Positions 1 through 20,144 are shown, numbered from the stretch's first letter. The stretch: 36,683 bases of DNA from Candidatus Woesearchaeota archaeon (GCA_964652735.1 CAZZCD010000002.1:1-36683), one strand, 5' to 3'. Translations and numbers: made by a program. Notes: generated by a model not told the origin, from the letters alone.

Positions 1-3000
1 ATTTCAACGGTGCAATTAGTCCTGTTACATTGTTATCATCTAAATAATAATTGCTCCAATCAGCATGGTCAAACCTGCTTGCAGTCATTCTATATGAAAC
101 TTCTCCTGCCTGGGTTCCGTGGATTGTTAAGGTGTTTTTCTCAGGGTTTTTTTCATACCAGACATCTCCATTAAATCCAGGGGTTAATATTATCTGGAGT
201 TTTTCCCAGTTCTCTCCAAAGTCTGTTGTCTGGTAAAATAGCCATAAATCAGAGCCTTTCTCTAGTTTGTCAAATTCAATTGTATAGTTGCTTTTCAGCA
301 TGACACTTCCTGTAACTTCTTCTTTTATCCCAACCATACCAGCCATATATGTTGCATAGTTCGTACCATCAATAGTATAAACAGGGTCAACTGTGCCGAC
401 TGTGATTTTGCTTACTTCGGTGATGGCATTGTTGTTCATATCAAGACCAGCACTAGTAATACGAAATATTTCATCATTACCAGTACTAAATGCCAAGGTA
501 TCAGCTGCATTACCAGGTCTGTATATTCCCGTGTCTCCATCATTTGTAAAAGTATATGCTGGATCACCAGCAGTAGAACTTCCATCTCCAAGCCGTAGTT
601 CATTTGCTATCCTCATATATCCAGCAAAAATAGATTCTCCTGTCCCGCTCACTGTCAAGTCGCCATCTATCTGCAGGTTTCCAGTAGAACCCAGATTCAT
701 CTTCTCAACATTATTAATTAAAAAACCAATATCAACATCTGTATCAAACCTAAGCGCCCAAGCAGCGTCATCATCCAAGAAACCAAATTCTGTACCTGTA
801 GCATATACATAACCATCTGCAACACCATCAGAACCAGCTAACTTAAATCCTGAAGCCGACGACGCACCTTTTACAGTCATTGTATTATAATCCCCAATTA
901 AAGTAGGGGTGGTTATTTCAGGTGAGGTCCCAAATACCCATTTTCCACTTCCTGTTTCATCTGAAACTCGTGTTGCCCAATTAGCAGAAGTTGTTGCAGT
1001 TATCTCTGTGTAATCAATTGCTGTTCCAAGTGTTGCTGCAACTGTTACTTTGTCTGTTGCTGCTCCTGTTGTTGTTATTCCTGTTCCTGCTTCAATTGTT
1101 GCAGTATTTCCACTAGAAATTGTCTGAGGAGTTCCAGAGGTTCCTGCAAGAGTCCAAGAACCATAATTATCAGAAGCTGAATCTGCAGTACAAGTAATTG
1201 TCCCTGCTGCACTTACAGAACTAACTCCTGTATTTGCTCCACAACTGCTTACTTCTAACCAGGCAGCTCCTGCATCTGTAATAGATCCTCCATTAATATC
1301 TAAACTTCCTTCAGCATCTATGTCTCCATCTTCATCAACTTCAAACTTTTGTACTCCCCCAACAGCTAATCCTAATAATGCATAGTCAGCTGTTGCACTA
1401 GCAGGATTAATGTAAACCGGTGCTCCTGAAGCAACTGTAGAAGAAGATAAATCTGTACTTGAAAACTTACCTGTCATTGTTTCATCTTGAGCAAGTGCTA
1501 AATACTGTGGATGGTCATCATCACCCAGACCACCTAAATCATCGTGATCAAAGTCTATCTCTCCAATAGAAATAGCTGTTCCTAATGTTGCTGCAACTGT
1601 TACCTTGTCTGTTGCTGCCCCTGTTGTTGTTATTCCTGTTCCTGCTTCTATTAATGCTGTATTACCCTGTGTAATTGTTTGGCCACTTCCACTAGTTCCT
1701 GCTAATGTGAAACTGCTCATGGTTCCTGTTCCTGTATCTCCTGCACAGTTTATTGTTCCGTCTGATGAGATACTGCTCACATACTGGTCAGCACTGCAAC
1801 CGCCATTGAAGAAGTTTGCTGTATCGTCATAAAGATTCCCGCCTCCTATATCCCAGTTACCATTAGTATAAAGACCAGATCCTGATTGGGATATGTAGTA
1901 ACTAGTCTGGAATGCAGTTCCAGTTCCTGGATAAATAGCTCCTTTAAAGTCAGTGTCATTATCTGTATAGAAAGTTCTGAAATTCTCCTGAACCCGATTG
2001 TTCATACCATAATGAGTGTATCCATTACCAGTGTACCAAATGCTTCCTCTTGCACTGGCCGCTTCTCCAAACTCAATGCCTGCACTGCCTGCGTCATTGC
2101 TCTCAATAAGTATCGTAGGGTCAGCATCATTATCTCCAATTTGTAACAATTCTGTTGGACTCGTCGTCCCTATGCCGACGTTGCCATTAACATATAGGCT
2201 TGCAGTTGAACCTTGGAGATTTGATGACGTGCCAATACCAACCTTCTTGTCAAAAAGGAAATTGCCCCATCCATCCCAGTACATCTTTCCAACTTGTGTA
2301 TCATCAGAGCGACTCGCATTTATTATAACCCTTTCATTATCATCTTCCAAGTGAATGTTTACTTCTTGATTAGCATTACCTAACTGAATATTCCCTGCAA
2401 CATGTAATTTTTCATCAGGGCTTGTCTGCCCGATGCCGACGTTGCCTTTCATATAAATTTCACCTGCCCCTTTAACATACATCAAATCAGACCCATCTTT
2501 ATCTTCAACTATTAAAGTTGTTTCAGTATTGCTATCTCCTGCCCGTATTCTAACACCATTACCAGTAGTAGCGTGAGTATTATCAAAACGTGCTATATAG
2601 TCTGCATTAACCGAATCAACTACATATAACTTATAATTACCAGGATTAGTCGTCCCTATGCCGACGTTTCCTGTTCCTTTTATTATCATAGACTCTTGTT
2701 CCGCAGTGCTATTATAAGTTACAAAATGCATGTCAATTAATGTACCACCAGGAGCGCGGGTATAAATCTTAGCATTATAGCTACCTTGGTTAAATCTTAA
2801 TTCAGTAGTTTCACCTACATCCCATGTAGGATTATGAAGTTCTACAATAGGATTTGATGTATCATAAACCTCCAAATTCGCCCCAGGACTAGTCGTCCCG
2901 ATGCCGACGTTTCCACCTGTTTCTATAACCATTCTTGGATTTGTAGCTAAATCATCTCCGCTTGCAAATGTAAAAGTATTGCTATTTGAATTATCTCTTC

Positions 3001-6000
3001 CAATAGCCCATCCTGCTGCTTGTGTGTCTCTAAATCTTATATCTGAATCACCTGTTCCACCACCATCAATAACTAAAACTGCATTAGCTGCATTTAATAA
3101 TTGCATAGTTCCTTCTCTTACATCTAACTTAGTCGCTGGACTCGTCGTCCCGATGCCGACGTTGCTCGTAATATTATCTATAGCCAAAGCAACTGAACTT
3201 GTCCCATAATTGTAAATCAGTAAATCACCTGAACTTACTGGACGATAAAGTTCCCATTGATAATTTCCATCTTCCATAAAAAAAATGCCTGCTTCTTCAT
3301 TATCAGGTGCATCTAAAAAAAGAAATGCATCTTGAGTAGAACTATTTATTAGTATGCCATCAAGAGCTGTGCTTGTTTCAACAGTTAATTTCTTAGCAGG
3401 GTTAGTTGTTCCGATGCCGACGTTGCCTAAAAAGTAATTATCGTTAGCAGATTCAGTCTGTCTAAAAGTAGCTATATTTGTAAGAGCTCTAGTATTATCA
3501 ATAATAGTAGTCCCATCTATAATAAAACGACTATCTGAACCATTTAACAAAAGGTTTCCTGTTCCTCCTATTTCTAATTGTTTGCTTGGACTCGCCGTCC
3601 CAATGCCGACGTTGCCGTCATTTTGGAATGTTGTTAAAATTGTTGTCCCATACGCTATTTTTATATCATTGCTATCAGCAAATATAGAATATGCATTTGC
3701 TTGACCAGTGTCATCTATAACAAAAGCAGGATTTGCTGAACCTTCAATTTCTAAAAATGTAGATGAACCACCATCTTCTCTTGTTGGACTCGTCGTCCCA
3801 ATGCCAACCTTATCAGTATTACTATCAACAAACAAAACACTTGAATCAACACTAAAGTTATTTGCTCCTAAAACAACATTTTTGAAAGCACCTGTATATG
3901 GAACATAAGTGTCTGAGATGTTTGTATCTTCTGCTCCGTAAATTGTTCCTGTTACATTCAAATCTCCCACAACATTTAATGTGTTTTGTGGGGTTGCTGT
4001 GCCGATGCCGACGTTGCCAGTGGTATACAACTGGTCTGTATATGTATTCTTCCAATATCTAATACTACTACCTAAATCTAAACTACTGTCAGCACTAGGT
4101 TTAAGAACAGCATTAACTTGGACAACACTTGTGGCTGAACCCAAATATAAATCAGAAGCTTTTGTTGTTATCAATGAATATCCTGTTCCATCACCAGAAG
4201 TATCTGTAATTTTTATTCCCCTACTATTTACACTATTAACAACAATGTCCAACTTCGCCGAAGGACTAGTCGTCCCAATGCCAACCTTATCAGTATTACT
4301 ATCAACAAACAAAACACTTGAATCAACACTAAAGTTATTTGCTCCTAAATCAACATTTTTGAAAGCGCCTGTATAAGGCACAAAATCACCTGTAACATTC
4401 ACACCATTAATATATGTATTATGCGCTACAATATCATTTGCAATAAAGTTGTGTGTTCCCTCTATTGCTAAATCATAAACATGTTGTGGCTCGTGAGTTT
4501 TAATTGAAACAATCTTGTCAAAGAAAATATCAGCAGAAACATTTAAATATTTATTACCAGTATCTTTAGTTATGGTTGAAGTTACTATATCAATACCTGG
4601 AAAATTGAAAGAGAAAATGCAAAGAAGTGGCATAGGACTACATGTATTAGTTGAAAGACTAATAAAACAATTAGAAGAAGAGAAAGAAATGATAGATTGG
4701 TCAGTTAAATTGCAAAGAGCTTCTAGGAAAGGTAGGTTTGATGAACTGAAAAGAAGAGGATTAGTATAAATGAAATTTGTAGTTGATACAAATGTGTTAT
4801 TAACATTTTTTTGGGAGGATTCTTTTACTAAAGGAATATTACTTGACCAAGATTTTGAATTCTTTGCCCCAGAATATGCGTTAGAAGAAATCAATGGGCA
4901 TATATCTGAAATATTGCAAAAAACAAACACCTCATTAGAGCAATTCAAAGAACTAAGAAGAGATTTAGCTATCTGTGTTGAATTTATTCCATTAGAAAAA
5001 TATTCAGAATTTCTACAAAAAGTTTCAGATATTTCAGATAAAAAAGATGTTGATTTTATCGCATTAGCACTAAAACTCAAACTTCCTGTCTGGTCTAATG
5101 ACAAACATCTTAAGCAACAATCTTTAGTTAAAATATTCACAACAGAAGAATTAGTTAAATCCTTAGAATCCTCATAATTTCCTAACTTAGGAACAGCAAT
5201 CTCCTCACCTTCTTCTAATTCACTAACTTTAACCCAACCATCCTCTGTTAAATAAGGATGATTCCCAGTTGTGTTAACAGCTCTGCCACTCTCTGTAATC
5301 AACTCATAAATAGGCTTTTCACCCATATCTAATAAAGCTTTGACTTTGTTTGAAACAATCTCACCTGTTTCTTCATCTAAACTCAAAACATATTCACCAG
5401 CTTCAATATCTTTAATCTGCTTCTCTGAACCGTCTGCCATTGAAATCAGGCTGTCTTCTGCAACACACAATCCTGTTACGTTTAAGTCTCCATCAACATT
5501 CAAGGTGTTTTGTGGTGTTGTCGTCCCGATGCCGACGTTTCCACCTTCTAAGATTGTCATCTTCACATCATTACTTGTAGCAAAATATAATGGTTTGGCT
5601 TCTAACACATTAATCATACCATATTCTGCTGCATTATATCCGATATTCATACCATCTGAAATAAGAGCTCCTGTTTCATCTGTTGTAAATTTAATATATG
5701 CCTGACCTAAGCTGTGAATCTGAAGTGGGCGTGTTGGACTCGCCGTCCCGATGCCGACGTTGCCGTTAATCGCTAAAGCCGTACCCGCCGCCAAAGATTG
5801 ATCTGCCACATAGCCAATTACCTGGGCTCCTGATGATTGAACTGCCCAAGTATAAGATGACCCCGAACCAATATGTAACAATCCAAGAGGATTCGTCGTC
5901 CCGATGCCGACGTTGCCGTCTCCTCTTACGAGAAAATAGTTGCTTGAACCTGTTCGGTCTTGAATATAAAATGCTTTATCAGAAGAATTTGTCCCAGCTT

Positions 6001-9000
6001 TTATCCATGGTCCAAAACTCTGACCCGTTGTACTTCCTGCAGTAATTTCAGAAACATAATAATTATCCGCACCTGTCAATTCAAGCGCTCGTTGAGCGGC
6101 TCCTGCTAAGATTTCTACTTTATTACTTGGATTCGTAACTCCAATGCCGACGTTTCCTTCAACAATCAATCCATTAGCAGGAGGTTGTATATTATAATAA
6201 CCTCCTACCGAGAGACCAGAATTACTATGAAGTCCCATACCATACGCACCTTCATAAAATCTCATAAAATTAATGCCGGTAGTATTCACATTTTGTATAA
6301 ATGCTTGCACCCCTCCTGACGCTGAGTTTTCCAATCTTAAAGTAGGGTTATTATCCTTCAAATGAAGTAAGGAAGAAGGACTACTCGTCCCAATCCCAAC
6401 CATATTAGTATTTGAATCAACAAACAAAACACTTGAATCAACACTAAAGTTATTCGCTCCTAAATCAACATTGTAAAGAGCACCTGTATATGGAACATAA
6501 GTGTCTGAAAGATTTGCATCTCCTGCTCCGTATATTGTTCCGGTCACGTTTAAATCTCCAACAACATTCAAAGTGTTTTGTGGTGTTGTTGTGTTAATGC
6601 CGACGTTGCCGCTTCCTATAATAGCCAAAGCATCTCTGAAATCAGTACCATTAGATTGACTTAGATAAAGGTTACCATATATGTCATTACCTTTTGCTAT
6701 AATTTGAGTTGTCCCAAAGGCAGTATTAAATTGTCCCCAAGTATGATAATCATCTCCACCAGTATACCTATAAACCCGTATTCCATCAGTACTTCTATTT
6801 TCAGCACCACTAATTTTATTTAAGGTTAAATGAGCAGGAAGTGTTGAAGCGTCCCCGATGCCGACGTTTCCTCCTTGTTGTATTCTCATTGCCTCTGCAA
6901 CAGTACCACCTTGCTCTACTGCAAAAGCTAAATCACTATCGGTAGAACCTGTATCAATACCTGATATTCTGGCTATATTACCAGAACCTAAATTAAATAA
7001 AAGATTAGCAAATGAGTTAGTAGCACCATCTTCGTTTTGTATCATAATAGTTGCATCTGCTTCCTGACCACTAGAACTACTAGCATCATACGCTGTGGCA
7101 TCATCCTTCCTAACAACTAATAATGATGCTGGTGTTGTCGTCCCGATGCCGACGTTGCCACCTGTTTCAACCGTTACCAATTCCTGACTATTCATAGTAT
7201 TCACAGCCCCGTAAGCAATTTGGAATTTAGTATCATCATTCATACCTAATTTCCATGAATTAGCTTCTGCTGCTCCACCGCCAACTTCATAATAAATTTC
7301 ACCTGCTGCACTTTTTCCTCTAACTTCTATGGAAACATCTGCTGCATTTGTAAATGATGCTAATTGCTCATTATCTCCTGTAACTTCTAAAACATGCCCA
7401 GGTGTCGCCGTCCCGATGCCGACCCTATCAGTATTACTATCAACAAACAAAACACTTGAATCAACACTAAAATTATTTGCTCCTAAATCAACATTTTTTG
7501 TTGCACCTGTGTAAGGCACAAAATCCCCTGTAACATTCACACCATTAATATATGTATTATGAGCAACAATGTCATTTGCAATAAAGTTGTGTGTGTTTTC
7601 TATTGCAAGGTCATAAACATGCTGTGCTGGGTGTTGTTCTATTGAAGTTATTTTTTCCCATTTTATTATGTTTTGCCCATAATCAGGCACTGCTATTTCC
7701 ATTCCTTCTTCTAAATAAATTACTTTAAGCCACTCTACACCATCAGAAAGTTTTAAATATTCCTTGTTACTATTTTTATTTATGGCTGAATTAATAACTT
7801 CCCCTGAAACTGAATTAGATTTTAAATTAATGTCTAAAGCTGTAGTTCGATTAATGAAACAAGACATATCTGTAAGATTTAAACAAACAAGAGAAATAAC
7901 TGATGAAGATTGGGAATTTTGTGAGCAAATTAATTGGCATCCTGTTGATGAACTACCTATGAAAGAAGAATTTGTTAAAGAACTAAGAAAAAGAGAAAAA
8001 GGTCCGTTCATTAAATTTAATTCTGTGGATGAACTATTTAAAAAATGAGTTATACTCAAATTATTCATCCCAAATGTCAAAGAGAAATTAATAAGGTCTG
8101 TAGAAAAAATCCTATTCTTGAAAAAGTCCTTAGAAAAAAGATGGATGAAATCATCCAAAACCCCGGTCACTATAAATCTCTCAGACATGAGCTTGCTGGA
8201 GAAAGAAGAGTTCACATCCTCAAAAGTTTTATCCTCAAATTCAAAATTGATGAAGTCAACAAAATAGTTATGTTCCTCGCCTTCAGGCACCACGACAAAG
8301 CCTACTGATTTTTCCCCTAATTTTTCCTCAGAAGATAATTTAACCAAATAAGGATGATTTCCTGTTGTATTAATGCTTCTACCAGATTCTGTGGTTAACT
8401 CATAAATAGGCTTTTCACCCATATCTAATAATGCTAACACTTCATTAGAAACAATGTCTCCTGTTTCTTCATCTAAACTTAAAACACGCTCTCCCATTTG
8501 AACATCTTTAATCTCTTTTTTAGTTCCATCTGCCATTGAAATCAGAGAGTCTTCTGCAACACACAATCCTGTGACATTCAAATCTCCATCAACATTCAAT
8601 GTGTTTTGTGGTGTTGATGTGTTGATGCCGACGTTGCCGTCATTTTGAATCCTGACCCGTTCGTTCCCAGCCGCTTGACCTCCAGAATAAAATCGTATAT
8701 TACCAGAAGTATGACGTGCTATGATACTCAAACCCCCACTTAAATCTCCATCTGCTTCAATTGCTGCACCATCTTGCAGATATGCCCCAATAGGAGTATA
8801 TGCACTACCAAATGTAAAGAGATTCAACCAACCGCCATCGGCTTGAATTGAAGCTAGAGAACGTGAGTTGTTAGTTGGTTCTTTTACATAGAGGTCACCA
8901 TCATAAACTTCCAACTTCGCCGAAGGACTCGCCGTCCCAATTCCGACGTTACCACCTTCTAAAATAACCATATGCTCAGCTAATGTTCCAGTTCCTATAT

Positions 9001-9478
9001 TTTTCTTAAATATTAATCTTTCATTATCACTTTCAATGCCAACTATCCATTCATCTGTAGGAGACACTGAAGTTCCACCACTAGAAAGATACAAGTTTGA
9101 ATCTCCTCCACCTGCTTCGTGAATTTGAATAAGTCCTTGGACATCAAGTGCTTGATGTGGAGCAGTCGTCCCGATGCCGACGTTTCCTGAACTATCTAAA
9201 TTAATCCCTGTAGTTCCAGCATACTTAATATTCATTACATCATTACCTTGGTTATAATATAAATAACCTTTATTAGTGCCAGCATCTACTTGGAATCTTA
9301 TACCTACATCTGTATCTGCTGAATTAGCATCTGTATCTGAATTTATATCAATCCATGCTTCTCCTGTATCCGCTACATCTAACTTCTGTGAAGGACTCGT
9401 CGTCCCGATGCCGACATTACTGTTGTTATCAACATAAACATCTTCCTGATGCACGAAAGAATCGTGATATTCTGTTCT
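1..9478 (-). CDS. Giant repeat-rich secreted/surface fibre protein, 3'-partial (continues past the window start); hosts two inteins
   Basis: Plus-strand triplets in phase 2 mod 3 contain no TTA/CTA/TCA. I checked this by hand for 2-1650, 4430-5281, 5912-6154, 7742-8563 and 9380-9478. For the remainder it is implied by the absence of any in-phase minus-strand ORF call. An ORF with no stop inside the window is not listed, as shown by the unlisted partial pyrH at the right edge. The translation is Gly/Thr/Asn/Val-rich with 23 in-frame G-N-V-G-I-G-T-T-S-P modules and a DDHPQYL motif. Its repeat units match those in ORF 9479..12646. Confidence 0.8.
1020..1648 (-). repeat. Direct duplication of a 74-nt core (1020-1093 and 1575-1648) within a roughly 555-nt module repeat
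   Basis: The two copies differ at 4 positions. Both encode ...EAGTGITTTGAATDKVTVAATLGTA... Confidence 0.8.
4542..4549 (+). promoter_or_regulatory. TATA box of the intein-2 VapBC operon
   Basis: TTTAAATA (context TTTAAATATT) lies 30 nt upstream of ATG 4572. Confidence 0.5.
4572..4769 (+). CDS. VapB-like antitoxin (65 aa) embedded antisense in intein 2
   Basis: The ORF track calls a TTG start at 4515, which would lie inside the intein C-lobe. ATG 4572 is 30 nt downstream of TTTAAATA. The N-terminus MVEVTISIPGKLKEKM is typical of a small RHH/AbrB-type antitoxin. Its TAA stop is immediately followed by the vapC ATG. Confidence 0.6.
   Translation: MVEVTISIPGKLKEKMQRSGIGLHVLVERLIKQLEEEKEMIDWSVKLQRASRKGRFDELKRRGLV
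4770..5177 (+). CDS. vapC: PIN-domain toxin VapC (135 aa) embedded antisense in intein 2
   Basis: The N-terminus is MKFVVDTNVLL (first acidic residue). It continues ...APEYALEEI..., ...DVDFIALALKL... and ...VWSNDKHL, giving the PIN acidic-residue pattern. Size and position directly after a small antitoxin ORF also fit. Confidence 0.8.
   Translation: MKFVVDTNVLLTFFWEDSFTKGILLDQDFEFFAPEYALEEINGHISEILQKTNTSLEQFKELRRDLAICVEFIPLEKYSEFLQKVSDISDKKDVDFIALALKLKLPVWSNDKHLKQQSLVKIFTTEELVKSLESS
7752..7759 (+). promoter_or_regulatory. TATA box of the intein-1 TA operon
   Basis: TTTAAATA (context TTTAAATATT) lies 30 nt upstream of ATG 7782. The VapBC cassette has the identical box and spacing. Confidence 0.5.
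7782..8048 (+). CDS. Putative antitoxin (88 aa) of the intein-embedded RelE-type module
   Basis: The ORF track calls a TTG start at 7764. I prefer ATG 7782, which lies exactly 30 nt downstream of TTTAAATA. Its stop overlaps the toxin start (ATGA at 8045-8048). It is small and acidic, and its C-terminus (...REKGPFIKFNSVDELFKK) resembles that of the antitoxin at 13866 (...YEKGRFVELK). Confidence 0.6.
   Translation: MAELITSPETELDFKLMSKAVVRLMKQDISVRFKQTREITDEDWEFCEQINWHPVDELPMKEEFVKELRKREKGPFIKFNSVDELFKK
8045..8308 (+). CDS. RelE/ParE-family toxin (87 aa) embedded antisense in intein 1
   Basis: The pattern ...NPGHYKSLRHELAGERRVHILKSFILKFKIDEVNKIVMFLAFRHHDKAY matches the RelE/ParE layout (NP..x..L...L.G..R..i...f.l.y.i.......v....HH..aY). 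Its size is as expected and it has a 4-nt overlap with the upstream antitoxin. Confidence 0.75.
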   Translation: MSYTQIIHPKCQREINKVCRKNPILEKVLRKKMDEIIQNPGHYKSLRHELAGERRVHILKSFILKFKIDEVNKIVMFLAFRHHDKAY

Positions 9479-12400
9479 CTATAGATATTGTGCTTTTACT
9501 TCATCTGCTGATAATGCCCGGTTGTAAATGCGAACATCATCTAAACTCCCATTTAAATAATTACCCCCCCTATTCCCAATTGATGTAAGAGTAAAAGATG
9601 AAAAATCAGTAGATGTACCGCTAACATCATTTTCACCATTTAAATATATAATTGTTTGATTGTTTGTCTCATCATAGGTTAATGTTATAAATACCCACTC
9701 ATTTAAATTCCAAGGATTACTATTTAAATAATCACCTTCGTCTGCTAGTGCCCAATGTATATGATTATATAAATAAACATCCAAACCATCATTGGTAGAT
9801 GTAAATATTCCTGTCCAATATGCTTTAGTATATTGATAAAGCCATAATTCAGCACTAAATGACCCTGATATTGTTCTTCCTACACTAATATAATCATCTC
9901 CATCAAATTCAAAATCACCACCATTATTGAATCCACCTGATGAATTTGCTGTTGCTCCGTGATTTGTTCCGTGTTGATTGTAAATAGAACTATCTAAAAC
10001 AGTTTCGCTTCCTGCTGAACCTACAAGGTTTTCAGAATTAAAATTCATCGCTAAAATTAATCCTTCATCTGAAATCTCATGAATGCTTTTTGTATTTGTA
10101 AAACCATTAACATCTAATGTATAATTGGGACTAGTCGTCCCGATGCCGACGTTGCCTCCTGATTCAATTCTAAGAAGTTCTCCACCATTATATTGAAATA
10201 TATAATTACCTCCACTTATCCAATAACGGTCTAAAACAAAATCACCATTAGCATCATAAAACTCAATCGTCCCATAATGAGTTGCATCACTGCCCCCACC
10301 TATTTTTTTACTATTAGGTATGCTTAATTGATAAAGAGGACTCGTCTCCCCGATGCCAACGTTACCGCCTGCTTCTATTCTCATCTTTTCAGACCAACCA
10401 CTCTGTCCATAAGCACTATAAGTCCCAAACACTAAATCAGCAGGGGCATCAGAATCTCCAAAAGCAATATATGAATCAGTAGCATCTGCTGTTAAGATTA
10501 TAAAATTATCATTTGTATCCTCTTTTATCCCAAATGTAGCACTGGCTTTAGTTATATCTAAAGTTTTGGTTGGACTAGTCGTCCCAATCCCAACCATATC
10601 AGTATTTGAATCAACAAACAAAGTATCTGTGTCTACAGTCAGATTCTTCTTCAGCTCTGTGTTTCCGTAAACAATAAAATCATTAACTACACTCATGTTC
10701 TGCTTTGTCAGATTCATAGAAGTTATATTATAAACATAAATTGTCTGTGCATAAATACTGCCTGCGTCAATTGTAACACCTCCAGAAGCCCAGTCTCCAT
10801 CTACATCCAAGCTTCCTGCAATATCAAAATCCCCTACTACAGAAGTGTTCAAAGGCATGAAGAAAGTTGAGTCATAGCCATCCAGGGTCTCAGAACCCTG
10901 AGCAGATATATTAATGCATGTCAAAGTATCTCCAATTATTTGAACAGCATGTCCAGCAGGACAGGCAGAAGGATAATTTGTAAGATTTGCCCATCCGAGC
11001 AAACTTGTTCCATAATTCAAAGCAACTGTTTCTGTATAACCTTCTCCAGGTGTTCCTGAAACACTTATTCCACTTCCAGAAGCAACATCTCCGACATAAT
11101 TTCCAGTTGTATCTGTTCCAAGAACAACAGAATCTGGCTGCACAGCTGTAACTCCTGTGCTTGAAATATTAATATCTCCAGAAACAGCTTTTGTTTCCCA
11201 GGCAGTTCCAGAACCAATCAAAATATTTCCAGAAGTTGCAGTGGTTGTTCCAAGAGATGAGCCATTTATCTTAACAACATCTGGATTTGGATAAGTTCCA
11301 GATAAATCACCACCTGCAGTCTGTCCTTCTTTAATATAATTATTATCAAAATAAGTAGTATTTACATTTATAGTAGTTGTTCCGCCCAAAGCCACAGAAC
11401 CTCCTCCTATCAAACCAGTGCCTGCAGTAATAGTTAAAGTTGAATTAGCCAAGTCTACATTTCCAACAGCTCCGTCAGTTATCATAGCACTAGTTATTGA
11501 GTCCACTTGGTCTTCATTCACATACCTAATATCTCCTGTCTGGTTAAGCTTAGTCTCATTAAGAATAAAATAATTACTTGCATTCTTATAGATATAAATC
11601 CCTCCTGCATAATATAAGGTATCTGTATTAATATCTTCAGAACACTCCCAAGCAGAAGAAGTAGCATTCCACTTAGCAATCTCTGTATCTGCACAGCTCA
11701 ATCCTGCAAGAGTGTCATTCTCTCTAAGATCAATAGTCTGATTAAGCTGGCTTTCTGAAAAACTTAAAGTTGAACCGTCAAATGTCAGATAATCGCTGTC
11801 TTCTGTCCAATTAAATCTTCCTTTGAACCAGTCTGCTGTCACATTTCCTGTAACATTAACATCACCACCAACCCTGATATCTCCTGTAACATTTATATCT
11901 CCAGAAACATTAACATCTTGAACAAATAAACTTGTTATTCTATTTATCAAGCTTCCTAAAAAGCTGAAAAATCCTGAACTAGCACTTACATTATAACTTC
12001 CTAAAGTAAGATTAGAATCCACACTAACCTCACTCAAATTAACATCTGTTGCCCTAAATGCATAAGGAACTCTTCCAAGCTGAGATACATTCTTCAAAGT
12101 TCCATCTCTGTAATAACATAAGTAATACTGGGTGTCATAATCTAGTAAACTGAGATTCCCTCCTCCTGAGCCAACTGTTGGAAGATAAAGTGAAACAATT
12201 CCTCGTGTATCTGTAGTTTGTGAGGTAGAATGGTTATAAACAACATCAGGACCACAAAGTGTACTTGAATTATCTGTAATATTAAATCCAAAAGTAAACG
12301 TTCCTGTTTCAATTGTTCCATTAGAAAATGTTGTCTGAAGATTTATATGAAAAGTGTCATTGATTGGAGCAGCAGAAACCATGCTTAAAAAGAATATCAA

Positions 12401-12646
12401 ACTTGAAGCCAAAAATAAATTTATTAATAATTTCTTAGAACTTGTAAATTTTGGATTTTGTTTTTTAACAGTTTTTTTATTTTTCTGTTTAGATGGATAT
12501 TTTTTAAACTCTATCTTTTTCTTACTAACTGAAATATACCATACACTACTTGACATACAATTATTAATCAAAGACCAATCATAAAAATTAGGAACCATTT
12601 CAGGTCTAAAACAGGGTATTTTGGGCCTTTTGTATGTTTTTTCCAT
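9479..12646 (-). CDS. N-terminal part of the giant surface protein (signal anchor, fibre repeats, LamG-like jelly-roll domain); ends at a TAG in the same phase as the downstream 9.5 kb frame
   Basis: ORF track gives 1055 aa. An ATATAAAA box lies 29 nt upstream of ATG 12646. There is a hydrophobic anchor LLINLFLASSLIFFLSMVSAAP and more than 30 N-x-S/T sequons by eye. Three NVGIGT(T/E)SP-type modules are present. The C-terminal ...GSLDDVRIYNRALSADEV is typical of LamG/concanavalin-like domains. Confidence 0.85.
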   Translation of the reverse strand: MEKTYKRPKIPCFRPEMVPNFYDWSLINNCMSSSVWYISVSKKKIEFKKYPSKQKNKKTVKKQNPKFTSSKKLLINLFLASSLIFFLSMVSAAPINDTFHINLQTTFSNGTIETGTFTFGFNITDNSSTLCGPDVVYNHSTSQTTDTRGIVSLYLPTVGSGGGNLSLLDYDTQYYLCYYRDGTLKNVSQLGRVPYAFRATDVNLSEVSVDSNLTLGSYNVSASSGFFSFLGSLINRITSLFVQDVNVSGDINVTGDIRVGGDVNVTGNVTADWFKGRFNWTEDSDYLTFDGSTLSFSESQLNQTIDLRENDTLAGLSCADTEIAKWNATSSAWECSEDINTDTLYYAGGIYIYKNASNYFILNETKLNQTGDIRYVNEDQVDSITSAMITDGAVGNVDLANSTLTITAGTGLIGGGSVALGGTTTINVNTTYFDNNYIKEGQTAGGDLSGTYPNPDVVKINGSSLGTTTATSGNILIGSGTAWETKAVSGDINISSTGVTAVQPDSVVLGTDTTGNYVGDVASGSGISVSGTPGEGYTETVALNYGTSLLGWANLTNYPSACPAGHAVQIIGDTLTCINISAQGSETLDGYDSTFFMPLNTSVVGDFDIAGSLDVDGDWASGGVTIDAGSIYAQTIYVYNITSMNLTKQNMSVVNDFIVYGNTELKKNLTVDTDTLFVDSNTDMVGIGTTSPTKTLDITKASATFGIKEDTNDNFIILTADATDSYIAFGDSDAPADLVFGTYSAYGQSGWSEKMRIEAGGNVGIGETSPLYQLSIPNSKKIGGGSDATHYGTIEFYDANGDFVLDRYWISGGNYIFQYNGGELLRIESGGNVGIGTTSPNYTLDVNGFTNTKSIHEISDEGLILAMNFNSENLVGSAGSETVLDSSIYNQHGTNHGATANSSGGFNNGGDFEFDGDDYISVGRTISGSFSAELWLYQYTKAYWTGIFTSTNDGLDVYLYNHIHWALADEGDYLNSNPWNLNEWVFITLTYDETNNQTIIYLNGENDVSGTSTDFSSFTLTSIGNRGGNYLNGSLDDVRIYNRALSADEVKAQYL

Positions 12647-12980: not shown

Positions 12981-13205
12981 TTATAATAATTCCAGAAATT
13001 CTTCTTTGCTTAATTTTACTTGTTTTAATATCTCTCTCAAAAGTCCTTTGCCTAATTTTTCATTTCCATGAATTGGAATGATAGTCCTTCTTCCATCAAG
13101 ATGTTTGAGTCTAACATGGCTACCTTTTCCTTTAATCATTTCAAAACCTTTTTTCTCTAAAATCTTACATAATTCTTTGCCAGAAATACGCACTAACTTA
13201 GCCAT
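12981..13205 (-). CDS. hicA: HicA mRNA-interferase toxin
   Basis: ...SGKELCKILEKKGFEMIKGKGSHVRLKH.DGRRTIIPIHGNE.LGKGLLREILKQ matches the HicA/YcfA signature. It lies immediately downstream of hicB. Confidence 0.85.
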   Translation of the reverse strand: MAKLVRISGKELCKILEKKGFEMIKGKGSHVRLKHLDGRRTIIPIHGNEKLGKGLLREILKQVKLSKEEFLELL

Positions 13206-13208
13206 TTT

Positions 13209-13451
13209 TTAATTAGAAACCATAAATGGCTTTTTTACCTGTACTTTTTGAATCCCTATAAATTTCATTGGTTCTATGTCTTCCCCATCAGCTTCTAAAC
13301 ATAATTCAATGGCTTCTTTAATTCTTTCCACTACTTCAGAAATTGTTTTTCCTTGTGTATGACAGCCTTGAATATCTGGAACAGTAGCTACGTAAATTCC
13401 ACCTTCATCTTGTTCAATCAATACTGTAAAATCTAATATCTTTTTTTCCAT
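13209..13451 (-). CDS. hicB: HicB antitoxin (UPF0150 fold)
   Basis: FTVLIEQDEGGIYVATVPDIQGCHTQGKTISEVVERIKEAIELCLE is the HicB N-domain pattern. I prefer ATG 13451 over the track's TTG 13457. Confidence 0.8.
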   Translation of the reverse strand: MEKKILDFTVLIEQDEGGIYVATVPDIQGCHTQGKTISEVVERIKEAIELCLEADGEDIEPMKFIGIQKVQVKKPFMVSN

Positions 13452-13539
13452 AACCAATAACTGTAATAGAATTATTTAAACCTTTCTTCATGAGGTTCTA
13501 AGACAAATTTTAAATACAGAAAAAACATGAAAGGATTGC

Positions 13540-13660: not shown

Positions 13661-13741
13661 TAAAACTTTTAAAAAGTTTTAGATCAAACCTAGATACTTA
13701 TCAGTTATCTTTAAAAACTAATTTTGATAATTCTTTATAAT

Positions 13742-13814
13742 GCCCCGATAGTTCAGAGGCCAAGAATGCAAGGTTTTCAACCTTGTGACCCGGGTTCGAA
13801 TCCCGGTCGGGGCG
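13742..13814 (+). tRNA. tRNA-Glu(UUC)
   Basis: Acceptor is GCCCCGA/UCGGGGC, D stem GUUC/GAAU and anticodon stem CAAGG/CCUUG with loop UU-UUC-AA. T arm is CCGGG-UUCGAAU-CCCGG. Confidence 0.9.
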
Positions 13815-13839
13815 TTATAACCCTAATTTAAAAGAAAGA

Positions 13840-13865: not shown

Positions 13866-14105
13866 ATGTATATGGAAACAACCATCAGGCTTAATATTGA
13901 TATAAAAAAAAGGTTGGATTCAATGAAAATTCATTCTAGAGAAAGTTATAATGATGTTGTTGCTAGAATTATAGGAGACAATAAGAAAATTGATGAAGAA
14001 AGTTTAAAAGAAACTATAGAAGTTCTCAGTGACCCCAAAACAATGAGAGACATTGCAGAAGCTCTTGAAGATTATGAAAAGGGGAGATTTGTAGAGCTTA
14101 AATGA
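13866..14105 (+). CDS. RHH-type antitoxin (RelB/ParD-like)
   Basis: The N-terminus TIRLNIDIKKRLDSMK looks like an RHH strand. It has an acidic C-terminus and an ATGA overlap with the toxin at 14102. Confidence 0.7.
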   Translation: MYMETTIRLNIDIKKRLDSMKIHSRESYNDVVARIIGDNKKIDEESLKETIEVLSDPKTMRDIAEALEDYEKGRFVELK

Positions 14106-14359
14106 GCTATAAAATATTTCTTTCTCCAAAGGCAAACGATTTCTTAGAAAAACTTGATAAAAAAGATAAAGAAAGGATGAAGAACAAATTAAAAGATTTA
14201 AGAGAAAGTCCAGAATTAGGAAAACCCCTTATAGGAAAGCTTGCTGGTTTGTGGAGTTTAAGAGCAGGGGATTATCGTGCTTTATATCAAATAAGAGATA
14301 GTGAACTCTTAATTCTTGTTTTAAAAATTGATCATAGAAAAAAGATATATAAAAAATAG
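14102..14359 (+). CDS. relE: RelE/ParE-family toxin
   Basis: ...LRESPELGKPLIGKLAGLWSLRAGDYRALYQIRDSELLILVLKIDHRKKIYK is the canonical RelE pattern. Confidence 0.85.
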   Translation: MSYKIFLSPKANDFLEKLDKKDKERMKNKLKDLRESPELGKPLIGKLAGLWSLRAGDYRALYQIRDSELLILVLKIDHRKKIYKK

Positions 14360-19016: not shown

Positions 19017-20144
19017 ATGAAATTTAACATTCTGCAATATTTACCTAACACAACAAAAATAATGATAGATAAAGAAATAAGAAAAGAATTATTTTCTAAT
19101 AAATCTATAAGTGAATGGAGTAAATCTCTTAATGTTCCTTTAAAAAACATAAGCAGATATATCAATGGGACAAGATCCATTCCGATAACATTATTAACTG
19201 AATTGGCCAAATCAAAGAAGATAAACAGTAAATTACAAGATAAAATAAAACTTAAAATAACTAAAAGCGGGAATTATCTCAGAATTGGCCCAATAATTAA
19301 AATAGATGAAGACTTGATATATGTAGCAGAATTGATTAAAGGGGATGGACATATCACCCCCAATTTCTGGAGGATAATCTTTGTGAATAATAATGGATTT
19401 TTAATAACTTATGTTCATAATTTTTTCAAGTCTTTAGGAATAAAACAAAGCCAGATAAGCCTTATTAAAAGAAAAGATGCTAATTTTCTTACTATAAGAT
19501 CATCCTTATTAGCCATATTATTCAATAAAATTTTGGAGGTTCCATCAGGAAGAAAAAAAGAATTAAATATTCCTGAATTCGTACTTTCAGACAGAAATTT
19601 AAGTATCGCGGCGGTTAGGGGAGCATTTGATGCTGAAGGACATATAACTTCAAAAGGTTCTAGAAGGATTTCTATAACATCAAATAGTAAAAAATGGTTA
19701 ACCCAATTAAAACAAATCTTAGAGAAGTTAAATATAAATTCAAGAATATTTGAAGACAAATCAAAAAGAAAAGAGCCACTCTACAGGCTCTTTATATCCC
19801 ATAGACAAAATCTCATAAAATTTCTAAAAATAATCAAACCTTTACACACGAAAAGAAAAGAAAAATTAAAAGAAAGATTATCTGATTATACAAAAAATCC
19901 TCAAAAAGAATTTCATAAGAGAATATTGCTCTCAATAAAAAAGGGAAATACCAGAAGAAGAGAAATTGCTAGCGATATAAAACAGGATTTAATATTAATT
20001 GGGAACAATATTAATTGGTTAAAGAAAAAAAGGTATATAGATTCTTTCGAAAAGATTTATACAAACAAAGGATGTTACCATAAATACAAAGTTACTGGAA
20101 AAGGGGAAGGATATCTAGAAAAATCACTTTCTTTCTTCGATTGA
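19017..20144 (+). CDS. Free-standing double-motif LAGLIDADG homing-endonuclease-like protein with N-terminal HTH
   Basis: Two dodecapeptide motifs are present: YVAELIKGDGHI and IAAVRGAFDAEGHI. The N-terminal SISEWSKSLNVPLKNISRYINGTRSIP looks like an HTH. The 3' end overlaps the thrS 3' end convergently by 21 nt. Confidence 0.8.
   Translation: MKFNILQYLPNTTKIMIDKEIRKELFSNKSISEWSKSLNVPLKNISRYINGTRSIPITLLTELAKSKKINSKLQDKIKLKITKSGNYLRIGPIIKIDEDLIYVAELIKGDGHITPNFWRIIFVNNNGFLITYVHNFFKSLGIKQSQISLIKRKDANFLTIRSSLLAILFNKILEVPSGRKKELNIPEFVLSDRNLSIAAVRGAFDAEGHITSKGSRRISITSNSKKWLTQLKQILEKLNINSRIFEDKSKRKEPLYRLFISHRQNLIKFLKIIKPLHTKRKEKLKERLSDYTKNPQKEFHKRILLSIKKGNTRRREIASDIKQDLILIGNNINWLKKKRYIDSFEKIYTNKGCYHKYKVTGKGEGYLEKSLSFFD

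Follow-up and report, generated by a model that had tools for sequence, protein, structure and literature searches.

In this study, we examined a 36,683-nt stretch of DNA from Candidatus Woesearchaeota archaeon (GCA_964652735.1 CAZZCD010000002.1:1-36683; hereafter the window, 33% G+C), in which a giant open reading frame (ORF) for a tail-fibre-like repeat protein is interrupted by two inteins, each holding on its opposite strand a small operon of the toxin-antitoxin (TA) type. The host protein consists of many 'GNVGIGTTSP' repeat modules. Its extein segment at 5471-7555 matches a tail fiber family in PHROG (phrog_9942, 7.8e-27), Pfam gave no match on the extein sequence of the giant ORF, and intein-free copies of the module (GDLNVTGTIYGA.D.N.SDTYVPYTGA) are also present within the same frame. 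An initial annotation, made from the sequence alone, had described the first intein and its antisense operon, and its sequence facts and coordinates all proved correct; the second intein and its antisense cassette (4418-5467) had not been reported there. The features of the locus are the following.

2-9478, minus strand: host gene of the giant repeat protein, an open frame of 3159 codons that exits at the window start
8563-7556, minus strand: intein 1, class-1, 336 aa (Pfam Intein_splicing, 4.8e-22, 78.9 bits)
8342-8563, minus strand: N-terminal part of intein 1, blocks A and B (CVAEDSLISMADG...GNHPYLV), from reading and DnaB alignment
7748-8341, minus strand: intein-frame read-through of cassette 1, a stop-free, predicted disordered Ser/Leu/Asn/Phe-rich linker of 198 codons
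7556-7747, minus strand: post-block-B hairpin (DGVEWLKV..EIAVPD) and blocks F and G of intein 1, from alignment to DnaB mini-inteins and comparison with intein 2
7406-7555, minus strand: C-extein flank of intein 1, 91% identical in DNA to the C-extein flank of intein 2 (4268-4417)
7742-7759, plus strand: putative promoter of cassette 1, with a B recognition element (BRE)-like ATCAGAAAGT and the TATA box TTTAAATA (7752-7759), read from the sequence
7782-8048, plus strand: antitoxin-like gene of cassette 1, 88 aa, of an unnamed family, assigned from position and co-conservation
8045-8308, plus strand: RelE/YafQ-type toxin gene of cassette 1, 87 aa, recognised by four profile sources
8309-8341, plus strand: 3' tail of cassette 1, with two T5 runs resembling an archaeal terminator and a weak second copy of the promoter motif, read from the sequence
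5467-4418, minus strand: intein 2, a paralogue of intein 1, 350 aa (Pfam Intein_splicing, 1.5e-27, 96.7 bits)
4542-4549, plus strand: TATA box of cassette 2 (TTTAAATA), 22 nt before the ATG at 4572
4572-4769, plus strand: putative antitoxin gene of cassette 2, 65 aa, with a ribbon-helix-helix (RHH)-like N-terminus (MVEVTISIPGKLKEKM) and a faint VapB match
4770-5177, plus strand: toxin gene of cassette 2, 135 aa, PIN_2 (VapC-like), in the canonical endonuclease slot of intein 2 (Pfam PIN_2, 3.9e-19)

Both inteins retain the catalytic positions of class 1. Intein 1, rightly identified at the outset as a canonical mini-intein at 7556-8563, reads in frame NVTGL^CVAEDSLISMADG...NTTGNHPYLV...QHVYDLAIENTHNFIANDIVAHN^TYING (carets mark the splice junctions), its C-terminal stretch being HNFIANDIVAHN followed by T, and intein 2 shares the insertion context (NVTGL^C...AHN^TYINGVNVTGDFVPYTGA). 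The block A nucleophile is the Cys1 of CVAEDSLIS in both, the TxxH of block B lies within NTTGNHPYL and aligns with the block B His of the DnaB mini-inteins, and block G ends in ...IVAHN^T with a +1 Thr, likewise found in 57 related inteins. After splicing of intein 1 the ligated extein junction would read ...DLNVTGL-TYINGVNVTGDF... (NVTGL-TYINGV). Without its insert, intein 1 comprises 139 aa and aligns end-to-end with the mini-inteins of Npu DnaB (4o1r, E 3.9e-18) and Ssp DnaB (1mi8, 7.7e-17). An AlphaFold2 model of the full 336 aa has a predicted local distance difference test score above 90 at residues 1-80 and 272-336 and below 50 at residues 83-270, and Foldseek relates it to 4o1r and 1mi8 with target-normalised template modelling scores of 0.90 and 0.89, respectively; the model suggests that the two lobes form a HINT domain and leave the insert disordered. 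Pfam yields no LAGLIDADG or HNH match in either intein, in keeping with what had been remarked for the first. A bacterial intein-like or pretoxin-HINT (PT-HINT) identity was discarded: both canonical junctions are present with extein repeats on either side, and the Pfam PT-HINT scores (20.9 and 30.1 bits) compare with 78.9 and 96.7 bits for Intein_splicing.

The two inserts do not occupy the same place. From the DnaB alignment, the classical endonuclease slot lies after '...EIAVP' and before 'W.KI.SI', and the initial annotation had the cassette of intein 1 filling it. This is true of intein 2; in intein 1 the insert follows directly upon block B (after HPYLV), before the hairpin 'DGVEWLKVIYLEEGMEIAVP' and ~25 residues upstream of the canonical slot. 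The SDGVEWLKVIYLEEGMEIAVPD segment, previously counted with blocks F and G, is that hairpin, which normally comes directly after block B. Since the inserts sit at two different intein positions, they represent independent insertion events. Inteins 1 and 2 share ~69-80% identity, below the 91% of the first 150 nt of the C-extein, and the sequence further out is unrelated (48%). The C-extein similarity has the look of a tract left by gene conversion or co-conversion, or else of a target site under strong conservation.

Cassette 1 makes up a 594-nt insert. Its first ATG (7782) stands exactly 22 nt after the TATA box, a leaderless-type geometry, and an ATGA overlap joins its two genes, so the coupled antisense operon is present as first annotated. 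A candidate second promoter copy at 8322-8341 matches at ~11 of 21 bases, which is not significant alone. The toxin scores 27.1 bits against Pfam ParE_toxin (cut-off 23), 2.1e-15 against the NCBIfam YafQ family (57 bits, under the model cut-off of 87) and 2.5e-5 against a PHROG RelE-like toxin, spanning positions 1-87 of 88. A profile of its family weakly retrieves the Helicobacter pylori toxins HP0894/HP0892 from the PDB (E 0.007-0.016), where a sequence search with the toxin alone found no match, and an HHD.AY motif is invariant at the C-terminus. The 88-aa partner has 44 homologues, all hypothetical and from Nanoarchaeota/Pacearchaeota, with an invariant core DWxFC...WHPVDEL; in some relatives an RHH-like N-terminus is fused to the DWEFC..WHPVDEL part. 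A PDB profile search with this family gave chance-level matches only (e.g. interferon-gamma, E 0.1), and a weak hit of the protein to NCBIfam NF003157 (intein-containing replication factor C small subunit, positions 354-437, E 0.0014) was dismissed as probably due to chance. The pair is kept together, with its 4-nt overlap, in most of 61 unique cassettes that we collected from metagenomes, and position and co-conservation together suggest that the 88-aa protein is an antitoxin. Profile searches therefore upheld two of the three translations in the initial annotation, the intein and the toxin, and placed the antitoxin in no recognised family. In cassette 2, the 65-aa ORF matches NCBIfam VapB only faintly (E 0.015), and its relatives hold precomputed Pfam RHH_12 annotations. 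In the PIN_2 toxin, the acidic residue D6 is kept in 18 of 19 relatives and D93 in all 19, the other acidic positions not being resolved. With PADLOC, none of the four cassette proteins gave a hit.

The intein frame is kept open through both cassettes. Counted over the three antisense frames, stops number 0, 18 and 20 in cassette 1 and 26, 0 and 17 in cassette 2, the intein frame having none in either. Ordinary genes of the window never show a stop-free antisense frame of such length (0/362 for 527 nt, 0/325 for 606 nt), and two free-standing TA modules 5 kb away contain at least six (HicAB-like) and at least three (Phd/RelE-like) antisense stops. When synonymous codons were resampled with the window's own codon usage, the probability of an open intein frame was 0.006 for the RelE toxin, 0.014 for the PIN toxin and 0.14 for antitoxin 2. 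The codons of the RelE toxin are in register with those of the intein, so that TTA, CTA or TCA would each be an antisense stop; none is used, and its leucines are encoded by CTT (three) and CTC (four), with TTA/CTA at 0 of 7. Antitoxin 1, in the same operon, is shifted by one base relative to the intein codons, so that these codons do no harm there, and all of its seven leucines are TTA (four) or CTA (three). By inspection, antitoxin 1 has no Tyr, and each His or Gln follows Lys, Glu or Trp: its open antisense frame is protected at the amino-acid level. The open intein frame, already recognised in the initial annotation, is thus selected and not accidental.

Protein-level selection acts on the TA frames. 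Over the 61 unique cassettes, entropy in the TA frame is 0.6-0.85 bits at codon positions 1 and 2 and 1.2 bits at position 3, and of the codons that differ, 38% are synonymous when read in the TA frame and 7% when read in the antisense intein frame, whose translation of the insert has no protein-level conservation. Given that the pattern of selection lies in the TA frame, the intein-frame translation is a by-product limited only to lack stops, and the Ser/Leu/Asn/Phe richness of the linker is the reverse complement of Lys/Glu/Ile/Asn-rich genes in AT-rich DNA. A functional domain in the intein frame was considered and rejected, the translation being unconserved and predicted to be disordered. 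The same data bear on whether the cassettes could be regulatory antisense modules, in which convergent transcription and ~0.6 kb of complementarity between TA and host mRNA tune the giant protein, TA coding being secondary. A strong consensus promoter does face host transcription, and the overlap with the host mRNA is always complete; yet the TA frames are under clear purifying selection as proteins, and the involvement of at least three to four unrelated TA families is what would be expected of passengers and not of a specific regulator. We therefore regard this explanation as unlikely.

Mining of genomes and metagenomes for homologous inteins revealed the same arrangement again on many independent contigs. 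Searching proteins with intein 1 brought up many metagenomic 'proteins' that match the linker (e.g. ...SSTGCQSICSQNSQSSSVISLVCLNL.DMSCFIN..., the antisense of the antitoxin core), and the best 80 of the 323 loci found in a metagenome scan all have an antitoxin-like/RelE pair opposite the matched strand. In 27 of the 61 unique cassettes, the antisense frame in register with the toxin is free of stops and the toxin itself uses no TTA, CTA or TCA. Another 29 are ordinary relatives with 3-11 antisense stops, which constitute essentially one clade and have a third, upstream RHH gene in place of the TATA promoter. Stop-free cassettes lie within the window-type intein at further loci (L069, L078 and the 2525-aa LamG protein P0089) and also in a second intein type, CYD..TEILT..GWK.F...SPEH.VY...IYDVDV.NDIVLV.R...WSGN^S, unrelated to that of the window and identified by motifs together with a sub-threshold Intein_splicing score (28.8 bits, E 1e-6). 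This second type sits in a DW(S/T)G.^.NNGT motif of LamG repeats in giant proteins of up to 5993 aa; its penultimate residue is Gly and not His (L014 5755-6777, L009 3270-5675, P0081, P0101, P0087, P0098, P0102). Antisense translations of cassettes are accordingly embedded in predicted proteins as long as 5993 aa. Arrays also occur: an 802-aa intein (L009) holds three tandem cassettes, one RHH/PIN and two antitoxin-like/RelE, and elsewhere RelE and PIN cassettes stand back to back beneath a 456-codon open antisense frame (L004). A third cassette family, DUF433 (1.7e-17) with DUF5615 (1.5e-12), takes the post-block-B site of many window-type inteins and is present in the second intein type as well.

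These comparisons show the cassette to be a discrete unit. Most stop-free cassettes have a common promoter motif, CAGAAAGTTTTAAATA(A/T)TC, 22-27 nt before the ATG, which the intein frame reads as '(D/E)YLKLS'. Pairs of cassettes with 83-91% DNA identity have flanks that are unrelated (L011 vs L014, L006 vs L049, L029 vs L048), and between L011 and L014 similarity stops at the toxin stop codon. At two loci (L030 71-931 and 934-6606; L038 1305-3413) the antisense ORF over the cassette opens with a duplicated N-terminus of the neighbouring gene (MRTGRTNL..., MKKQIIRKKRNN...), and it looks as if cassette insertion had duplicated the 5' end of the host gene. A scan of viral contigs with the cassette alignment found no relatives, hence no sign of a virus-borne element. 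One further stop-free cassette (L015 5400-8500) adjoins genes for a reverse transcriptase and a 23S-rRNA-IVP-type four-helix bundle, and C-type-lectin-fold fragments, a neighbourhood that looks like a diversity-generating retroelement.

Such recurrence also bears on how much weight to give to an artefact, that is, chance ORFs in AT-rich DNA, a chimeric assembly or a dead pseudogene. The 33% G+C, an in-frame TAG at 9479-9481 and the modest ParE hit of 27 bits would agree with it. Against them stand the PIN_2 and YafQ matches (3.9e-19 and 2.1e-15) and the 44 antitoxin homologues, the coding signature in the TA frames, a run of 3159 stop-free codons that is beyond chance at 33% G+C, codon-specific avoidance of antisense stops, and a nested arrangement found again in dozens of independent contigs, which came from different samples and were built by different assemblers. 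An artefact is scarcely credible.

A census in named genomes (one genome per species, scanned with an N-lobe alignment) gave 201 relatives, of which 78 loci were retrieved and 57 hold a complete in-frame intein. Record labels are Nanoarchaeota, Pacearchaeota and Woesearchaeota for the closest of them (70-81% identity) and Patescibacteria, Omnitrophota and others for the more distant. From block B to the end these 57 inteins measure 108-593 aa, against 66 aa in a bare mini-intein. Antisense ORFs of at least 55 aa are found in 46 of the 57, 94 in total, compared with 18 same-strand out-of-frame ORFs. Pfam, run on 69 of the 94 after obviously low-complexity ones had been removed by eye, identified DUF433 (16), DUF5615 (15), ParE_toxin (seven), PIN_2 (four), PIN_10 (two), DUF2283 (one) and Gp49 (one). 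The search detected no LAGLIDADG or HNH domain among these 69 ORFs and eight in-frame insert translations. Five of those eight contain an in-frame NYN (PIN-like) nuclease domain, all in inteins of the Candidate Phyla Radiation (CPR) that have no antisense ORFs. In these CPR/Patescibacteria inteins (L100, L122, L128, L131 and L150; Pfam NYN 1e-14 to 1e-25) the domain is located where a homing endonuclease would sit, and we know of no described inteins that contain NYN. Short-insert CPR inteins (L105, L106, L107, L113, L148, L158, L164 and others) have, on the antisense strand, hydrophobic ORFs of 63-77 aa, apparently two-helix membrane proteins, for which Pfam gave no match; type-I-like toxins are a possibility.

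The prevalence of PIN folds raises the question of whether nested PIN-fold nucleases (PIN_2, DUF5615, NYN) act as unconventional homing nucleases with the small partner as a regulator. Most inserts of the window-type family are indeed PIN-fold, with DUF5615/Mut7-C, PIN_2 and PIN_10 antisense and NYN in frame in the five CPR inteins, and the 91% identity of the first 150 nt of the C-exteins resembles a co-conversion tract. However, cassette 1 is predicted to encode a ribosome-dependent mRNA interferase of RelE/YafQ type and no DNA nuclease, the two-gene layout is that of classic TA modules with close free-standing TA relatives, and the same cassettes are found in two intein families that are unrelated and differ in target site, which would not be expected of site-specific homing enzymes. 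Such a role is quite improbable overall: unlikely for the RelE cassette, it is conceivable for PIN-fold and NYN cargo.

We think it likely that the two mini-inteins of the giant protein have each been colonised by a self-contained antisense type II TA cassette, for which the intein serves as a safe harbour. In the model that we propose, a DPANN-type archaeon has a giant tail-fibre-like repeat protein in which two paralogous class-1 mini-inteins are lodged, and each cassette is equipped with a putative BRE/TATA promoter of its own, followed by the antitoxin and toxin genes, the first ATG coinciding with the predicted start of transcription; cassette 1 additionally ends in an oligo-T tail. The product of cassette 1 would be a RelE/YafQ-type mRNA interferase and that of cassette 2 a PIN_2 (VapC-like) nuclease, each presumably toxic and neutralised by its partner. 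Translation of the host gene would continue unbroken across the cassette, read as its reverse complement; this is possible only because the cassette codons leave one antisense frame without stops. This would give a ~200-aa disordered linker between the HINT parts; HINT would fold, splice and take the linker out with itself, and since the two leave together the mature surface protein would be unaffected. The TA genes would be expressed independently from the opposite strand, starting from their TATA boxes. The cassette would therefore be a mobile unit adapted to a coding-region niche by antisense stop-freeness, and the TA pair may penalise loss of the intein-bearing segment, likely as a side effect. 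The initial annotation had offered two functional readings, TA addiction in place of or in addition to homing, and the intein as a safe harbour. The architecture it described stands, and the safe harbour fits the data best, because several cassette families are found at several positions of two unrelated intein families, sometimes as arrays, all recoded stop-free.

Addiction itself is a possible, if doubtful, explanation: the TA pair would stabilise an endonuclease-less intein or repeat module, whose loss, by deletion or through gene conversion to an intein-free repeat, would poison the cell, and would thus replace homing. The examined members of the window-type intein family contain no LAGLIDADG or HNH, and the host protein is highly repetitive with intein-free module copies in the same ORF, so that the intein is in real danger of being lost through recombination. 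Elsewhere, integron arrays and genomic islands are stabilised by chromosomal TA cassettes, and here TA modules persist beside decayed intein remnants. That last observation cuts both ways. At one locus (L001 9650-10850; also L002 and L003; protein P0025, listed in 25 contig-index blocks, of which 24 contigs were read) a window-type intein has decayed, its N-lobe being frameshifted and its C-lobe interrupted by stops, and the antisense antitoxin/RelE-like pair is intact with its antisense frame open; a cassette kept after the intein has decayed is no guarantee of intein integrity. Stop-free cassettes are in addition found with no intein nearby, and addiction is compatible with a safe harbour and not exclusive of it. 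The decayed intein of L001 lies downstream of a Peptidase_S74 tail-fibre-like gene.

Some findings weigh against the safe harbour or soften the figures cited for it. About a dozen stop-free cassettes lie outside any intact intein or long ORF, and stop-freeness therefore persists beyond the proposed niche; some of them adjoin decayed intein remnants (L001-3, L017, L024), and others sit in TA-rich islands with stops just outside the cassette borders. The metagenomic hits were ranked by antisense translation, which biases the proportions of open and closed cassettes. The 88-aa antitoxin-like protein has no Pfam or PDB match and belongs to no recognised family in Pfam/NCBIfam, and it and its clade do not have the RHH N-terminus of its relatives. 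Taxon labels of metagenome-assembled genome records were taken as written and may be unreliable. Finally, the in-frame TAG at 9479-9481 divides a 1055-aa LamG-containing ORF (9479-12646) from the 3159-codon frame, and downstream of it the earliest starts of the intein-bearing frame are GTG 9454 and ATG 9235. In relatives of the host gene the LamG domain runs on into the same protein, and the TAG could be a recent nonsense mutation in a freshly broken gene, a site of readthrough, a sequencing error or the boundary of two separate genes.

The remainder of the window is archaeal chromosome, with genes for a threonyl-tRNA synthetase (ThrRS) with the archaea-specific editing domain, pyruvate phosphate dikinase and glycosyltransferases. 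An Rfam scan of 4000-9000 found no RNA family. The free-standing TA modules upstream of the giant gene are HicA/HicB-like (12981-13457, minus strand) and Phd-like/RelE-ParE-like (13866-14359, plus strand, with an ATGA overlap), and a tRNA-Glu gene (13741-13815) lies between them. A 375-aa ORF (19017-20144, plus strand) matches LAGLIDADG_3 (2.8e-19), has no splicing domain, and is convergent with the ThrRS gene, whose end it overlaps; it may represent a stand-alone homing endonuclease or the relic of an intein.

On a broader scale, the evidence leaves evenly poised the proposal that there is a dedicated class of mobile TA cassettes with an evolved stop-free antisense frame, which use the inteins of giant surface proteins as platforms, singly or in integron-like arrays of up to three, with at least three to four TA families and at least two unrelated intein families, in DPANN and in CPR/Omnitrophota. 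Were it true, inteins would be gene-carrying platforms, and gene callers would be overlooking a sizeable repertoire of TA and nuclease genes in ultra-small prokaryotes. Because gene callers annotate only the giant ORF, the TA genes are missing from protein databases and meaningless antisense translations are deposited in their stead. The cargo of an intein can evidently be an operon on the opposite strand, presumably transcribed independently, in many lineages, the intein offering a neutral pocket that other selfish elements use. With 0.5-1.8 kb of overlap, these loci are among the clearest natural long antisense gene overlaps, their simple, measurable selective signature being that TTA, CTA and TCA are avoided, for which the same operon supplies an internal control. 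They also offer a testable answer to the persistence of endonuclease-free mini-inteins in non-essential, recombining host genes, be it addiction or mere tolerance. For intein engineering, they suggest that unstructured inserts of 200-600 aa are naturally tolerated at two positions of a DnaB-type mini-intein. Agreeing with the initial annotation, which knew of no precedent, we found no prior description of TA genes inside inteins in the literature searched, which included two giant-protein papers and whose coverage left most subscription journals outside. The arrangement is widespread and apparently undescribed, the theme of selfish genes in inteins being already known.

That theme is familiar from inteins that nest an in-frame homing endonuclease (LAGLIDADG or HNH), such as PI-SceI in VMA1 or the Mtu RecA intein. 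As there, a selfish gene occupies a surface loop of HINT, and a large insert would be tolerated and removed; cassette 2 even takes the same slot. Unlike there, the cargo in the window is unfused, a two-gene antisense operon with its own promoter, and of TA type and not a DNA endonuclease. The DnaB mini-inteins (4o1r, 1mi8) are the closest solved relatives by sequence and fold and share all class-1 catalytic positions, whereas here the insertion is in a repetitive tail-fibre-like/LamG giant surface protein and not at a conserved position in a replication enzyme, and intein 1 has a 594-nt insert with genes on the opposite strand. The nearest precedent in the literature searched is ShiLan (Arsenault, Gosselin and Gogarten 2025, PMC11855218), an out-of-frame HNH insertion element found in the methylase genes of phages. 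It similarly places a selfish gene in an alternative frame of a stop-free insertion, of which gene callers see the host ORF only; it differs in being a single HNH gene on the same strand, with no splicing domain and with the peptide retained in the host protein (PMC11855218). In the window, by contrast, a TA operon forms the cargo, and a bona fide intein would take the peptide out.

Considered as type II TA modules, the cassettes resemble RelBE/YafQ-DinJ and VapBC in having a small upstream antitoxin gene that overlaps or abuts that of a ~90-aa toxin of RelE/YafQ fold or a ~135-aa PIN toxin, and free-standing relatives of the same cassette family exist. They depart from the type in lying wholly inside another gene, antisense to it, with codon usage bound by the host frame, and in that the antitoxin family of cassette 1 is unnamed and without a recognisable DNA-binding domain. 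Integron arrays contain compact, discrete TA cassettes, single or in tandem, that are thought to stabilise the platform. The cassettes described here likewise form arrays of two or three, with conserved junction motifs and similarity that ends at their borders; their platform, though, is an intein in a coding gene, and they have their own promoters. Only promoter-like junction motifs were seen, and no integrase or attC-like site was identified, no search aimed at either having been made. Group I introns, for their part, carry free-standing homing-endonuclease genes in either orientation, so that a self-splicing element shelters an independently expressed gene and the insertion is phenotypically silent, as we propose for the inteins of the window. 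In those introns, however, splicing takes place at the RNA level and the sheltered gene need not keep the host frame open, whereas splicing at the protein level would force the stop-free antisense recoding that sets these cassettes apart.

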